A DNA stretch of 64,000 nt from Verrucomicrobiia bacterium (GCA_035546095.1 DASZXB010000047.1:26905-90904); one strand, 5' to 3'. Counted from the stretch's first letter, positions 30,587-46,453 are shown. The notes: generated by a model not told the origin, from the letters alone. Translations and numbers: made by a program.

Positions 30587-30619
30587 AATTAAAGTTACAC
30601 AATGTTTGCTTAAATTAGC
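30587..30619 (+). repeat. left dif-like att junction
   Basis: aattaaagttacacaa-tgtttg-cttaaattagc. The left arm and tgtttg core are shared with 38785-38806. Confidence 0.6.
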
Positions 30620-30692
30620 CCCATGAACATTGAATAACATAAAAAAATATAAGCATTTATTTAATTAGAAAAAAAATGTTGACAGTCGAAAT

Positions 30693-32102
30693 TCAAGGAT
30701 AACTACCTTGCTGCACAGTTCCGCCGGCGGATTGCCCCATCCGATTGGCTATCGTTGAATTTCCAAACCCATTGACAGGGGAAGCCGTATTACGGCTTTT
30801 CCAATTTTGACCGATAACAGTCACAGGCTGGCTTTGCTGCAAAGATTGCTGATTATCTGTCTGAAGCTGGCTGTAATCAGGCTGATACATAGACGGAGCA
30901 GGGGAGTAAGCTATTTGAGAATTAAGCAAATGTTGAACTGGAAAGACTTCATTAAAAACTGTCACCTGACGCGGATTGATACGCTGGACTTCGCCAAACA
31001 TTGAATCCGCCGTCCGACCGTCAGACAGTTGCACAAGAATATGATGAGGGAAATAAACGTATCCAGTGCATACGACCAGATTGGTGTCTGTATTTTCAGA
31101 AGTGCTTTTAGGAAGCACAGCTTGTTGCTGTGCGCTATCGCGCAGAGAGTCTTCAGTTTGTGCAGGGCTATTAGTCCTGCGCGCGGACAGCGCAACTTGC
31201 TGCGCGGGTTTGGAAACTTTCTTCGGACTGTGCATCATCCACGAAGTGAATGTTCCAAGTAGTTTCGGAGCCTGTGAAAGAGCAAAAATTATCGCAACCG
31301 CCAGTATCAAAATACCCCACCAAGGGAGTCCCTTCCTGCGTCCACCTATATCGGCCACCATCCGGCCAGACAAACCAACACCAGCAGAAGTGTCATACGT
31401 TTGCGCAATGCCTTTTTTATCAAGCCGAAAAAGTTTGCGTGTCATCGGCTCTTGCTGACTACCAGTTGGCGCGCATTCGTAAATCGCCACGCTAAACACA
31501 TCCGGCTGCCTAAACATCCCAATCGAAAGTTTAGAATGATTGCGAACAACCCAAAAGTCTTGCGCGACTCGTTGCACAGCCGGATCAATCTGCTTCGTGT
31601 GCTGTGTGACTATCAAAACATCGTCACCAAATTTACGGTGTTGGGCGTTGTAAAATAAAACGCCCTCACCTGTGCGCTGCCAATTCCTCGAGCCATAAAA
31701 TTTCCAAGCCTCGTCCACCACATACATGCAAGGCCCAGACGTCGCACCGTTAGCTGTGTCAAAGTCTATAATGATTTCGTCGCCGTCCCTCGTTTTCTTG
31801 GCATTGTAATTCGACTTAACGAGCTTGCCATCCACAACACGCCAGAGATAAAAAGCCGCGATTTCTTCATCCGGCAATATATGAATACGCTTGTCACAGT
31901 CGAAATGCTTACCGAACGCTTTAAGCAAGTAGCTTCGCAATCCTATCATGGGCTGATGGCTGCCATTGACCCACGGCTCGACCCGCACCGCCAAGTTCGT
32001 GATTATCGGCCTTGTCCCTTGCAAAAGCTCATCTATCACTTGTTGCATTGCCAACAGTCCCTTGCCGCCACCGGGTTTGCCCGTTATGAAACTTATCGCC
32101 AT
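30693..32102 (-). CDS. Zot/pI-like inovirus assembly ATPase (phage A)
   Basis: Walker A GKPGGGKG, Walker B MYVVDEAW and a single TM (WWGILILAVAIIFAL). The C-terminal 169 aa are nearly identical to phage B Zot. Confidence 0.85.
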   Translation of the reverse strand: MAISFITGKPGGGKGLLAMQQVIDELLQGTRPIITNLAVRVEPWVNGSHQPMIGLRSYLLKAFGKHFDCDKRIHILPDEEIAAFYLWRVVDGKLVKSNYNAKKTRDGDEIIIDFDTANGATSGPCMYVVDEAWKFYGSRNWQRTGEGVLFYNAQHRKFGDDVLIVTQHTKQIDPAVQRVAQDFWVVRNHSKLSIGMFRQPDVFSVAIYECAPTGSQQEPMTRKLFRLDKKGIAQTYDTSAGVGLSGRMVADIGGRRKGLPWWGILILAVAIIFALSQAPKLLGTFTSWMMHSPKKVSKPAQQVALSARRTNSPAQTEDSLRDSAQQQAVLPKSTSENTDTNLVVCTGYVYFPHHILVQLSDGRTADSMFGEVQRINPRQVTVFNEVFPVQHLLNSQIAYSPAPSMYQPDYSQLQTDNQQSLQQSQPVTVIGQNWKSRNTASPVNGFGNSTIANRMGQSAGGTVQQGSYP

Positions 32103-32286
32103 TCTATTTCGTTTTCCTTTCCAAATCAGTCGAGGCCGGAAGTCCGCCACCTTTAACGAACCCAACGACTCTCATCCGCTTCTACTGGTTGCTTCACGGC
32201 TTTGTCCCGAAGCTTTCATCGTCGTTTCCGGCCTCAAAAATTCTTTCCAATATCCATCTCCGTTTTCAAAGCGTTTTTTGACTTCA

Positions 32287-32479
32287 GATTTCTGCCCGCC
32301 GCCTGCTCCGGCGAAGAAACAACACATAAACTTAGAGCCTGCGCGCGGCAACAAGCAGTCGTCACGCCAGAGTTTCCCCCTCCACCCTCCGAAACTCTGT
32401 CATGCCGACTGCTCGCTGCCGTGCTCGTAAGTCAGTTGTTTCTCCGCCTCCGCACAGGTGAAGGCGGCGGGCAGAAATC
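32287..32479. repeat. 18-bp perfect inverted repeat (extendable imperfectly to about 40 nt) enclosing about 157 nt
   Basis: gatttctgcccgccgcct (32287-32304) faces aggcggcgggcagaaatc (32462-32479). Secondary arms ggcgaagaaacaac / gttgtttctccgcc lie inside. Confidence 0.75.
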
Positions 32480-32499
32480 CGAAGCCAAAAAAAAAGCTT

Positions 32500-44421: not shown

Positions 44422-44424
44422 TTT

Positions 44425-44733
44425 ATGGATAATACACTTACATTTGAAAACTGTGTTTGTTTTGGGATTGGTATGGGCGTGGTTTATATGATGTTCCGCT
44501 CGATGGGGGTTTTTGTTTTTCTTCTGCTTTTGAGCCTTGCCTTTTCTTCTTCTGCGCAAACGACAAATCTTACCGAAATTGTCCCCTCCCCTTTGCCGGT
44601 GGTGATTTCATCGCCGTCCACGCCGGATTATTGGCCTGCTGCGGGAGCTGGTATCAGTTTTGGTTTTACCGTTTGCGGCTTTGGCTGGGTTCTTCGCATG
44701 GCACGGCGTGTAGTGCCTTCTACTTATGAGTAA
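44425..44733 (+). CDS. small secreted coat-like membrane protein (phage B)
   Basis: Internal signal-peptide-like segment FVFLLLLSLAFSSSAQ and C-terminal TM plus basic tail GFGWVLRMARRV. The true start may be internal. Confidence 0.5.
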   Translation: MDNTLTFENCVCFGIGMGVVYMMFRSMGVFVFLLLLSLAFSSSAQTTNLTEIVPSPLPVVISSPSTPDYWPAAGAGISFGFTVCGFGWVLRMARRVVPSTYE

Positions 44734-44878
44734 AAAAGTTTTTCTTAATTCCGTTCGGGTTGTTTCCTTTCGGCGCGTCCGCTTTTTTTCGACGTGGCAG
44801 GATGCTTTGACCGCGTTGCGTCCTTTTGTTGGTTTTTCGCAAGCCATCCGCATTTTCGACGATTTCTTTAAGCTGTGA
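44726..44878 (+). CDS. 50-aa ORF coupled to the Zot start, below the ORF-track cutoff (phage B)
   Basis: My translation is MSKKVFLNSVRVVSFRRVRFFSTWQDALTALRPFVGFSQAIRIFDDFFKL. Its TGA overlaps the Zot GTG (GTGA). Confidence 0.35.
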   Translation: MSKKVFLNSVRVVSFRRVRFFSTWQDALTALRPFVGFSQAIRIFDDFFKL

Positions 44879-46377
44879 ATTATTCTATTTCTGGCAAGCC
44901 CGGGGACGGCAAGGGGATGCTCTCTTGCCGTTTTATTCTTCACGAATTGAAAGTCTCTAACCGCCCCATCATTACCGATATGGCTATCGAGAAAGCCCCT
45001 TGGGTTTCTGGCTCTGAATCCCGCATTGGTCTTTTGCATTACCTTGCCTTAAATAATCGCGGTCGCACGTTTGATGCTGCTGAACGCATCTTTCGTATTA
45101 CGGATTCCGCTGCCCCCAACTTTTTCCTTTATCGCGCCATGAGTTCGCGGCATATAAAAACGCTTGGCGATAAACACCTTCAAGGCTATCGCGAAGTGAC
45201 CCCTGATGATAAAGTTTTGCATCCTGACGACTGGCGATTTCACAATGACTGGAAGCTTTTTGTAGCTGACCACAAACTGAAAGATTTGAAAGATGGCAAG
45301 CAATGTGTTGTTGAATGGGACACGCGCCTTGCTATTGCTTCGGGGGGTCATTATATCAATATGGATGAGTGTTGGATAAAGTGGCCTGCGCGCGGTTGGA
45401 ATTCAACTGCGGCGGGGATTCTCTTTTATTGCTCAATGGTTCGTCGCTTTGGTGACGATTGCTTTTTCCAAAGTCAGCGTATCGCAGACGTGGATTCTAT
45501 TTTGATGGACAGATGCCAAAAGTTTTTGGTTTGCCGAAATCATTCAAGATTGCAGTTTGGTGCTTTCCAGCAATTCCCAATTTTTTCTGTGGCGGCTTAT
45601 GATCATAAGCCAACTCCTTCCTCTGATGCCATGTCCCGAAAATTTTATCGGATAGATAAAAAAGGAATTGGCCAGTGTTACGATACTTCTGGCGGCGTAA
45701 ATGTTGCTGGCGGCGTTCTTGCAGATTCAAAGCGTAAAAATTCTGGAATTCCATTTTGGCTCCTGCCAATAGTCGCTCTCCTCTGTTTGGCTTTGGTGGT
45801 TTATGTCTTTAAGAAAGCTCCGCATTACATATTTTCTTTTTTCCATCATCCGGCTTCCAAATCTGTGCAGCAAGTTGCCCTGTCCGGGCAGAGGACTAAT
45901 AGCCCTGCACAAACTGAAGACTCTCTGCGCGATAGCGCACAGCAACAAGCTGTGCTTCCTAAAAGCAATTCTGAAAATACAGACACGAATGTAGTTTTAT
46001 GCACAGGCTACGTCTATTTCCCTAACCGCATTATCGTGCAACTGTCAGACGGCCGCACAGCGGATTCACTTTATGGTGAAGTGCAAGCGATTAACCCGCG
46101 TCGGGTAACAGTGTTTGGTCAAACTTTTCAAGTCCAACATTTGCTCAACTCACAAATTGCTTACTCCCCTGCTCCGTCTATGTATCAGCCTGATTACAGC
46201 CAGCTTCAGACAGACAATCAGCAATCTTGGCAGCAAAGCCAGCCTGTGACTGTTATCGGTCAAAATTGGAAAAGCCGTAATACGGCTTCCCCTGTTAATG
46301 GGTTTGGCAATTCAACGATAGCCAATCGGATGGGGCAATCCGCCGGCGGAACTGTGCAGCAAGGTTCTTATCCTTGA
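44875..46377 (+). CDS. Zot/pI-like inovirus assembly ATPase (phage B)
   Basis: Walker A GKPGDGKG, Walker B INMDECW and TM WLLPIVALLCLALVVYVF. GTG start (an in-frame stop lies 2 codons upstream). Confidence 0.85.
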   Translation: MNYSISGKPGDGKGMLSCRFILHELKVSNRPIITDMAIEKAPWVSGSESRIGLLHYLALNNRGRTFDAAERIFRITDSAAPNFFLYRAMSSRHIKTLGDKHLQGYREVTPDDKVLHPDDWRFHNDWKLFVADHKLKDLKDGKQCVVEWDTRLAIASGGHYINMDECWIKWPARGWNSTAAGILFYCSMVRRFGDDCFFQSQRIADVDSILMDRCQKFLVCRNHSRLQFGAFQQFPIFSVAAYDHKPTPSSDAMSRKFYRIDKKGIGQCYDTSGGVNVAGGVLADSKRKNSGIPFWLLPIVALLCLALVVYVFKKAPHYIFSFFHHPASKSVQQVALSGQRTNSPAQTEDSLRDSAQQQAVLPKSNSENTDTNVVLCTGYVYFPNRIIVQLSDGRTADSLYGEVQAINPRRVTVFGQTFQVQHLLNSQIAYSPAPSMYQPDYSQLQTDNQQSWQQSQPVTVIGQNWKSRNTASPVNGFGNSTIANRMGQSAGGTVQQGSYP

Positions 46378-46425
46378 AATACTTGTCAACGATATTCACA
46401 AACTTTTAACATTCTTATTTACAAG

Positions 46426-46453
46426 GTGTTAAGTGCTGTTTGTTATATTTAAT
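46426..46453 (+). repeat. right dif-like att junction
   Basis: gtgttaagtgc-tgtttg-ttatatttaat. The core and right arm are identical to 38801-38817. Confidence 0.6.

Follow-up and report, generated by a model that had tools for sequence, protein, structure and literature searches.

Two integrase-less inovirus prophages in opposite orientation on either side of a probable chromosomal dif site in a Verrucomicrobiia bacterium

The stretch of DNA analysed here, 64,000 nt from a Verrucomicrobiia bacterium (GCA_035546095.1, DASZXB010000047.1:26905-90904; the whole of it is called the window, and coordinates are positions in it unless a related contig is named), carries three directly repeated 28-bp sites that have the 11-6-11 layout of a chromosomal dif, with one inovirus prophage (phage A) between the left site L and the middle site M and another (phage B) between M and the right site R. 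We read this locus, with a probability of roughly 0.85, as a Limisphaerales-type dif at which two inoviruses were inserted by the host recombinases XerC and XerD, which would make them integrative mobile elements that exploit Xer (IMEXs), and at which the live dif, site M, lies between two prophages whose gene sets are inverted relative to each other. IMEXs are well known in Proteobacteria, and the two elements have several of the features that define them: they have no integrase of their own, they are integrated at the putative dif, and their flanks are hybrid sites, one of which is a complete dif. The sites and the prophages are as follows.

30592-30619, + strand: site L, AAGTTACACAA-TGTTTG-CTTAAATTAGC, attL of phage A, composed of the host's XerC-type arm AAGTTACACAA, the core and a phage-derived degenerate arm CTTAAATTAGC with 5 of 11 positions matching the XerD arm
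30620-38789, - strand: prophage A, an inovirus with a unit of 8,198 nt, regulatory end toward M and Zot end toward L
30626-30632, + strand: AACATTG, in which the core and the inner left arm recur in inverted form, just beyond the degenerate arm of L
38790-38817, + strand: site M, AAGCTACACAA-TGTTTG-TTATATTTAAT, attR of phage A and at the same time attL of phage B; phage-A-derived XerC arm AAGCTACACAA, core, and canonical XerD arm TTATATTTAAT
38818-46425, + strand: prophage B, an inovirus with a unit of 7,636 nt, regulatory end toward M and Zot end toward R
46426-46453, + strand: site R, GTGTTAAGTGC-TGTTTG-TTATATTTAAT, attR of phage B; phage-derived degenerate arm GTGTTAAGTGC with 4 of 11 positions matching the host XerC arm, core, and host XerD arm TTATATTTAAT

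These three 28-mers had been picked out in a first-pass annotation of the sequence, which also read an arm swap in them, L and M sharing the left arm and core and M and R the core and right arm. The repeat comparison agrees with both statements: the left arm and core common to L and M span 17 nt with a single T/C difference, within a match that runs on leftward to AATTAAAG (repeat family D5), and the core and right arm of M and R are identical at 17 of 17 positions (repeat family D14). The likeness to the Escherichia coli dif was also counted correctly there, with 9 of 11 positions of the right arm matching the XerD arm and a left arm that ends in CACAA, not CATAA. The distance from L to M is 8,198 nt and that from M to R is 7,636 nt, and all three sites are direct repeats. 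The search for additional copies that the annotation had proposed found no further copy of either half-site in the 64-kb window with up to three mismatches allowed, and a 21-mer from the site, described below, occurs once in each of four complete chromosomes. Site M is the only one in the window with two good arms. Because of this, and because the polarity of a motif resembling the FtsK-orienting polar sequences (KOPS) flips at M and not at L or R, M is in our reading of the sequence the live dif, a point that the first-pass annotation had not made, and L and R are probably inactive.

The genes of the two elements are arranged unidirectionally, with the Zot end facing outward, to L or R, and the regulatory and replication end facing M in both.

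30693-32165, - strand: Zot/pI-like assembly ATPase of phage A (Pfam Zot, E = 7.9e-13; PHROG Zot-like and M13 protein I)
33960-35393, - strand: putative pIII-like receptor-binding or minor coat protein of phage A, assigned from its position, signal peptide and Gly-rich linker
35434-35634, - strand: major coat protein candidate of phage A, 66 amino acids (aa), assigned from its signal peptide, hydrophobic helix and basic C-terminus
36599-37243, - strand: putative rolling-circle replication initiator of phage A, a weak match (Pfam REP_ORF2-G2P, E = 0.0036, below the curated cut-off)
37968-38534, - strand: attP-proximal protein of phage A (A188 family), homologue of the phage B reading frame at 39020-39430 (BLASTP E = 3e-9)
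39020-39430, + strand: attP-proximal protein of phage B (B136 family)
39615-40358, + strand: rolling-circle replication initiator of phage B (Pfam REP_ORF2-G2P, E = 3.1e-8; PHROG rolling-circle initiation, E = 4.8e-14)
42357-43907, + strand: pIII-like protein of phage B
44875-46377, + strand: Zot/pI-like assembly ATPase of phage B (Pfam Zot, E = 4e-5; inverted repeat I1)

With a Zot/pI-like protein, a replication initiator (Rep), a small coat protein, unidirectional genes and a length in the 5-12-kb range, both elements are by predicted gene content inoviruses (Tubulavirales), and apparently intact ones; the coat and pIII assignments were made purely from sequence features. Their inverted gene sets are joined by many inverted-repeat segments of 74-100% identity, and the two phages are mosaic. 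The pIII-like proteins of A and B are 53% identical, the major coat candidates 62%, and the zinc-ribbon open reading frames (ORFs) 92% (36147-36387 against 41091-41331), and zot is 89% identical over its last 524 nt (30692-31215 against 45855-46378, the C-terminal part), while the N-terminal parts of Zot are divergent and the two Rep proteins give no BLASTP match to each other. The segments of 89-92% identity suggest either recent exchange between co-resident or co-infecting phages or a host-specific constraint on the Zot C-terminus. An NCBI protein of a Verrucomicrobiae metagenome-assembled genome (MAG) has exactly the Zot sequence of phage A (100% identity); among the INPHARED phage genomes, only a partial Zot match of 32% was found.

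The absence of an integrase, asserted in the first-pass annotation, is upheld by domain searches of every ORF of at least 130 aa on either strand of either element, none of which yielded an integrase or transposase domain; the largest ORF in the elements left without an assignment, of 216 aa, is antisense to Rep. Xer recombinases usually measure about 300 aa, and there was no recombinase among ten ORFs of about 300-420 aa tested in the window, some of which are near that size. The attP-proximal protein family A188/B136 was considered as a possible Xer activation factor or repressor and set aside, as it matched no Pfam family even at E = 10 and no PHROG family, and its AlphaFold model, a helical bundle with a predicted local distance difference test score of 81, retrieved no significant PDB or BFVD match; a non-homologous factor is still conceivable. 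Homologues of this family are few, and relatives adjoin the site in four of the loci described next (L036, L044, L048 and L080).

That the site is the host's real chromosomal dif is very likely, judging from its conservation, its single copy, its likeness to a published dif prediction, the local skew and gene orientation and, as the decisive point, the convergence of KOPS-like motifs upon it. The 21-mer ACAATGTTTGTTATATTTAAT (core and right arm) occurs exactly in 108 contig stretches of a collection with one genome per species, mostly labelled Verrucomicrobia or Limisphaerales, and each of these loci, numbered with the prefix L, was taken with 8 kb per side. There is one match in each listed stretch and one in each of four complete chromosomes, and the two matching contigs in each of three assemblies seem to be duplicates, to overlap or to come from mixed strains. 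The right arm and core are invariant by search design, and variation is seen in the left arm's seven outer bases, which read ATTTCGC, TAGATGC, TAGTTAC and others; the XerC arm is the less conserved one, so this is what one would expect. In its commonest form, ATTTCGCACAA-TGTTTG-TTATATTTAAT, the site agrees at 22 of 28 positions with the dif that Kono et al. predicted in Methylacidiphilum infernorum, ACTTCGCACAA-TATATG-TTATGTAAAAT, which lies near the GC-skew shift point, and the unusual CGCACAA arm is common to both. The local GC skew is +0.023 to the left of the site and -0.024 to the right, being greater on the left in 48 of 59 loci, and 69% of the coding bases in the left flank are directed toward the site.

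What marks a dif functionally is that FtsK-orienting polar sequences converge on it. The motif GGGCAGGG, which matches the KOPS consensus GGGNAGGG (GGG[ACGT]AGGG), a consensus that is E. coli's, shows such a convergence here. Pooled over the flanks, it occurs 114 times on the + and 4 times on the - strand to the left of the site and 6 and 143 times, respectively, to the right (0 and 31 beyond glgA-serS); by distance, there are 112 and 4 within 8 kb to the left and 1 and 132 at 1-8 kb to the right, a sharp switch at the site. The first 1 kb to the right of dif is of mixed polarity (5 on +, 6 on -), and polarity exceeds 95% elsewhere. In the window the + to - counts are 2:0 in the left host flank, 3:1 in phage A, 0:2 in phage B (0:3 with the relaxed motif GGGGAGGG) and 0:5 in the right host flank, as listed here.

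17874-17881 and 18954-18961, + strand: host GGGCAGGG to the left of the array
35401-35408, 36308-36315 and 37605-37612, + strand: GGGCAGGG in phage A, directed toward M
35418-35425, - strand: GGGCAGGG in phage A, the one opposite copy
40623-40630 and 41163-41170, - strand: GGGCAGGG in phage B, directed toward M
44584, - strand: relaxed motif GGGGAGGG in phage B
47093-47100, 49095, 50087, 52033 and 60226, - strand: host GGGCAGGG to the right of the array

This polarity also bears on a reading in which the conserved 28-bp site downstream of glgA only resembles dif and serves as the attachment site of a dedicated, unlinked recombinase of the host or of an element. We regard this as improbable. 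Its appeal lies in the unusually conserved synteny with glgA-serS, in the tyrosine integrases that some of the phage relatives use, and in the position of the site at about 30% of four chromosome records; but the polarity of GGGCAGGG converges sharply from either side, non-syntenic left flanks and the region past glgA-serS included, the site has the 11-6-11 layout and the 22 of 28 matches to the published Verrucomicrobia prediction, it is single in each complete chromosome, and neither the elements nor the ten window ORFs tested include a recombinase gene. In the four records the site lies at 29.4% (OZ242022.1, L002; about 1.27 Mb), 30.6% (OZ251460.1, L009; about 1.38 Mb), 30.0% (OZ241891.1, L040; about 1.27 Mb) and 68.6% (OY969416.1, L049; about 4.06 Mb), and the agreement of these percentages suggests that the records share a start point; if that start is oriC, the replichores would be markedly unequal. 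The site was also found on contigs labelled Bifidobacteriaceae (L015, L020, L062, L070 and L079), Sulfotelmatobacter (L006, L047 and L081), Acidiferrales (L030), Pseudomonadales (L023) and Bryobacterales (L065), most of which carry a glgA product 69-77% identical and, where in range, a serS product 75-91% identical to the window proteins (L062 and L065 have no match); these oddly labelled contigs are probably mis-binned or mislabelled.

Returning to the dif with two prophages, the locus was also found in its unoccupied state. The genes that border the array in the window are hpf on the left and, on the right, glgA and serS.

30163-30516, - strand: hpf, ribosome hibernation factor, left neighbour of the array (Pfam Ribosomal_S30AE, E = 3.6e-21)
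47407-50158, - strand: glgA and serS, right neighbours of the array (NCBIfam glgA and serS)

The left flank as a whole holds bioA, bioF, an amidohydrolase gene and hpf, and the right flank a PEP-CTERM-like ORF, glgA and serS; in about 70 of the 108 loci the right-hand neighbour of the site is glgA, as a rule together with serS. A sister species, L003 (DASZXH010000011.1), has hpf and glgA products 98% and 96% identical to those of the window and between them only TAGATACACAA-TGTTTG-TTATATTTAAT. The window with both prophages taken out aligns to this locus through the left flank and the entire 28-mer, and the left flank and left arm of L align with the empty site. Since hpf, the 28-mer and glgA stand there by themselves, the attB that had been predicted from the window (junction sequence AAGTTACACAATGTTTGTTATATTTAATATAGG) exists unoccupied between the same flanking genes. 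An exact-protein look-up returned no match for hpf and, for the PEP-CTERM gene, one 992-nt contig only.

The first-pass annotation had noted as a puzzle that three direct repeats enclose two inverted gene sets, and had proposed that attP must have opposite polarity relative to the genes in the two phages. This proposal is correct, and the pattern recurs across the phage family. We call A-type the arrangement with a good left arm, the core and a degenerate right arm, and B-type that with a degenerate left arm, the core and a perfect right arm. The attP of phage A reconstructed from the window is AAGCTACACAA-TGTTTG-CTTAAATTAGC (junction sequence AAGCTACACAATGTTTGCTTAAATTAGCCCC), with a good XerC arm, a core identical to that of dif and a degenerate XerD arm that agrees with the host arm at 5 of 11 positions, and that of phage B is GTGTTAAGTGC-TGTTTG-TTATATTTAAT (junction sequence GTGTTAAGTGCTGTTTGTTATATTTAATTAGTC), whose core is again that of dif, between an XerC arm that is degenerate and an XerD arm that is perfect. 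The relatives that show one or the other type are these.

L110, A-type: full site beside glgA and TAGTTAAACAA-TGTTTG-CTTAAATTACA beside Zot, so that both junctions are present
L113 and L219, A-type: A-type junction beside Zot
L118, A-type: 8.7-kb contig with a 30-nt terminal overlap and so circular; attP AAGTCGTACAA-TGTTTG-ACGTATTCACC directly after Zot
L111, B-type: regulatory-end junction TAGATACACAA-TGTATG-TTATATTTAGT, Zot-end junction GGGAGGCTTCG-TGTATG-TTATATTTAAT
L112 and L243, B-type: Zot, then a degenerate arm, the core and the XerD arm, then glgA

The predicted attP of phage A is thus matched in form by the free circular relative L118, in which attP lies on the strand opposite the genes, and by other prophage junctions, among them the Zot-proximal one of L110, whose degenerate arm CTTAAATTACA is nearly the same as that of L. 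For the predicted attP of phage B, the same pattern is present at three more, independent prophages, L111, L112 and L243, and no free B-type circle was found; in L111 the two junctions differ by one base in an arm, as strand exchange predicts. The tree of Zot proteins interleaves the two types, with one A-type and one B-type phage being mutual best matches at 62% identity, which indicates that polarity was switched more than once or that the module was swapped between phages. Two further relatives, L116 and L242, have a tyrosine integrase gene just after Zot (6167-7237 and 6390-7415 of their contigs, respectively) and no dif-like attP, so that the wider family has lysogeny modules of both kinds, integrase-based and Xer-based, in alternation. 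L242, a homologue with a Zot like that of phage B, was considered as a free B-type genome and discarded for its own integrase.

In searches beyond the 108 loci, IMG/VR returned no relatives by Zot protein, and its pattern scans gave 69 and 53 matches, of which L219 alone belongs to this phage family and the rest look like chance. Metagenome scans gave no match to the regulatory-end junction of phage B and, with the junction of the B clade, three unrelated AT-rich contigs only. A 7.2-kb circular relative, represented by permuted contigs from two samples (L114 and L115), has neither an integrase nor a site like this dif; it may not integrate at all, or the host that it targets may have another dif. 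In genomes of other species, an L-type junction consisting of the XerC arm, the core and an unrelated arm lies 1.6-4.6 kb to the left of the full dif and so delimits small elements in four loci (site-oriented coordinates of each locus).

L080, 4825-6413: small element at dif, a 1.56-kb mini-element in which the A188/B136-family gene is the only related gene kept
L047, 5307-7221: small element at dif
L077, 400-2322: small element at dif
L057, 1741-6332: small element at dif

These may be satellite-like elements or decayed IMEXs.

As to mechanism, we infer from the sequence that host XerC and XerD would be the recombinases of integration, which would pair attP with dif in a synapse; with 6-bp central regions that are identical, unlike in CTX-phi and VGJ-phi, both strand exchanges would be possible. 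Recombination of attP-A with dif would leave the dead hybrid L on the outside and rebuild dif as M at the regulatory end of phage A, on the XerD side, and in phage B dif would be rebuilt at the regulatory end on the XerC side, with the dead hybrid R outside. In both types the degenerate arm stands beside Zot and the good arm at the regulatory end, for which reason the complete dif would always come to lie at the regulatory end; as a consequence, A-type phages would be placed to the left of dif with their genes on the - strand and B-type phages to the right with their genes on the + strand. A route in which XerC acts first seems unlikely for phage B, since its XerC arm is unrecognisable. Its integration might proceed by an XerD-first reaction, activated by FtsK or by some other factor, with XerC recruited by cooperativity. 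Junctions L and R would resist FtsK-driven excision in the way described for the site of the gonococcal genetic island (GGI), FtsK ignoring or stripping such degenerate-arm junctions. The order of events cannot be deduced from the sites, as integration of A then B and of B then A yields identical L, M and R; the claim that B integrated first is therefore not supported, and reading the order from the arms was rejected.

The KOPS-like motifs within the phages would account for the inverted layout. Over nine genomes or genome fragments of dif-targeting phages, GGGCAGGG occurs once in sense and 12 times in antisense relative to the genes (p = 0.003), in several different genes and frames, and by our own estimate about 12-fold above chance on the antisense strand only; the integrase-type relatives L116 and L242 have none. 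Being antisense to the genes and aimed at the regulatory end, the motifs would lead FtsK arriving from either replichore through the prophage to M. The gene sets would thus be inverted despite the direct-repeat sites because the motifs of each phage must keep steering FtsK to M.

It is also conceivable, though improbable to a similar degree as a site that only resembles dif, that the phages follow the route of CTX-phi, with a folded single-strand hairpin as the real attP, one strand pair exchanged by XerC, replication completing the reaction, and the 28-mers at the prophage ends as by-products. In A-type phages the core and inner XerC arm are repeated, 15-17 nt past the core, in a conserved inverted copy that might supply such a fold, but its stem of 7-9 bp is too short to hold both 11-bp arms, and neither attP has a second, complete inverted dif-like site nearby. 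The attP region of phage B folds into an imperfect 17-bp hairpin over the core, which by inspection is not conserved in L111, L112 and L243. Single-strand folding of both attP regions gave modest z-scores of about -2.4 and no CTX-like structure, and the double-stranded sites already have the 11-6-11 layout with a core identical to that of dif, whereas the CTX-phi and VGJ-phi overlap regions block the second exchange. The inverted core copies themselves, which resemble AAACATTG, stand at the equivalent place in L110, L113 and L118/L119, and often follow CCAT or ATGGGG; L219 also has one, but the pattern by which it was retrieved required it. They could form a stem of 7-9 bp in the viral strand, too short for an attP of the CTX type. 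In B-type phages, XerC-arm-like strings (GATATTCACAA, GTTATGCACAA and TTATTCACAA) occur 12-35 nt upstream of the core with the degenerate arm between, at 46391-46401 and 46413-46423 in the window and also upstream of the R-type junctions in L111, L112 and L243; they may be vestiges of a complete attP or chance occurrences in AT-rich DNA.

There is very little to recommend the idea that the head-to-head layout is secondary, having arisen by inversion or recombination between co-resident prophages that had first integrated in the usual tandem. The phages are mosaic and share long inverted segments (89% identity over 524 nt and about 90% over 240-245 nt) through which this could have happened, but lone B-type prophages with the same junctions exist elsewhere (both in L111, and the Zot-proximal one beside glgA in L112 and L243), inversion through internal repeats would not produce the clean degenerate arm, core and XerD arm found at R, and all three sites are still direct repeats. 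Even with about 0.1 pairs of exact 17-mer repeats expected by chance in 64 kb (our own estimate) and 0.3-0.4 matches per shuffled sequence at up to three mismatches, the suggestion that the three sites are chance AT-rich repeats near prophage ends is already refuted by their position at the exact ends of both inovirus gene sets, by the empty site in L003, by conservation across the clade (about 100 species), and by the recurrence of the arm pattern in L110, L111, L112, L113, L243 and the free L118/L119.

Several observations do weigh against a dif exploited by two Xer-dependent phages. The genes xerC, xerD and ftsK are not in the 64-kb window, and the role of XerC and XerD is one that we infer. 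No homologue of an Xer activation factor was detected, with no match to DUF3653 at E = 10 among seven small ORFs at the regulatory ends. IMG/VR and the metagenome scans contained no free circular B-type genome, attP-B being reconstructed and not observed. Some of the phage-borne motifs fall in conserved peptides common to A and B, and the 12:1 count is in part non-independent. On the right, the conserved glgA-serS block accounts for most of the GC-skew and gene-orientation signals. In the four chromosome records the site is found at 29-31% (or 69%) of the length, a figure that carries no information without the origin but differs from the 50% expected if the records begin at oriC.

A more tentative proposal, to which we give somewhat less than even odds, is that phage B and its relatives form a mirror-image class of Xer-exploiting phages, with an attP anchored on the XerD arm, dif rebuilt on the XerC side, two-sided arrays, a distinct XerD-first pathway, and host KOPS evolved toward the regulatory end. 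If so, the published rules that the new dif always lies to the right and that position gives chronology would fail here, the XerC-first, replication-resolved route that CTX-phi and VGJ-phi take would be unavailable, and attP polarity, prophage orientation and FtsK steering would be tied together.

Among known systems, phage A and its relatives L110, L113, L118 and L219 come closest to the Vibrio cholerae satellite phage TLC-phi, in whose attP a canonical XerC arm and a core identical to that of dif are joined to an XerD arm divergent at 8 of 11 positions, and to the GGI, whose site has a divergent XerD arm; the arm pattern is the same, and dif is rebuilt on the XerD side. Phage A differs from both in being a full-size, autonomous inovirus of Verrucomicrobiota, with an inverted core copy and with KOPS-like motifs aimed at the rebuilt dif. 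TLC-phi encodes XafT (DUF3653) for FtsK-independent integration, and none was detected in the seven small ORFs tested at the regulatory ends here. For attP-B, which matches dif only over the XerD arm and core, a recent bioinformatic precedent is provided by the PM2-like double jelly-roll phages, in which attP matches only the XerD arm and central region. These are non-filamentous capsid phages of Gammaproteobacteria, whereas the elements described here are inoviruses in which both polarities alternate among close relatives and which make up a two-sided array around the live dif. The side on which dif is rebuilt and the polarity of KOPS are not discussed in the consulted passages of the PM2-like phage work.

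CTX-phi and VGJ-phi are, like the phages here, integrase-less filamentous phages that integrate at dif, produce hybrid flanking sites and may accumulate as several elements per dif. The attP of CTX-phi is a folded single strand with two inverted dif-like sites about 90 nt apart and an overlap that is not fully homologous to dif, which is not so here, and VGJ-phi has two canonical arms and a core homologous on the XerC side only, whereas each phage here has one degenerate arm and the core is identical in all three sites. In published Vibrio IMEX arrays each new dif arises at the right-hand (XerD) side, so that position gives chronology; this rule fails in our reading of the present array, because phage B would rebuild dif on the XerC side. 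Co-oriented host motifs are known from lambdoid prophages of Escherichia and Salmonella, which carry the host KOPS octamer in the direction of the replichore (Bobay et al. 2013, PMC3603311). Both prophages here resemble them in carrying the host motif co-oriented, and differ in standing directly at dif and in having a polarity tied to the end at which dif is rebuilt; in the phages the motif stands at about 0.2 per kb, roughly double the figure that PMC3603311 gives for the E. coli chromosome. In the IMEX literature searched, KOPS appeared only in reference lists.

What appears to be new is thus the phylum, the presence of both polarities in a single inovirus family, an array that extends to either side of the live dif, and the phage-borne KOPS-like motifs directed toward dif. 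Xer-exploiting filamentous phages would be extended to Verrucomicrobiota, for which we found no prior description, and the dif and the KOPS-type motif GGGCAGGG, both defined at the sequence level for a large uncultured order, should help to locate termini and prophage borders in MAGs. Mirror-image attP sites would let dif be occupied from both sides, which contradicts the Vibrio chronology rule, and offer a natural test case for Xer recombination when the XerC arm, and not the XerD arm, is unrecognisable. Judging from the motifs that the phages carry, an element at dif may be under constraint not to send FtsK the wrong way.

Two further features of the window concern the host flanks. A segment of 768 nt (46454-47221), which holds the PEP-CTERM-like ORF (46498-47154, - strand) and one correctly oriented GGGCAGGG at 47093, abuts the XerD arm of R, where L003 has 40 nt. 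No further half-site bounding this segment beside R was seen by eye in the output of the A/B comparison; it may be a strain-specific indel or the cargo of an older element. On the left, a small signal recognition particle (SRP) RNA (Rfam, 67 bits) at 15908-16004 on the - strand overlaps the annotated start of the dnaX ORF (14101-15936), and the TTG start listed for dnaX is therefore probably too far upstream.

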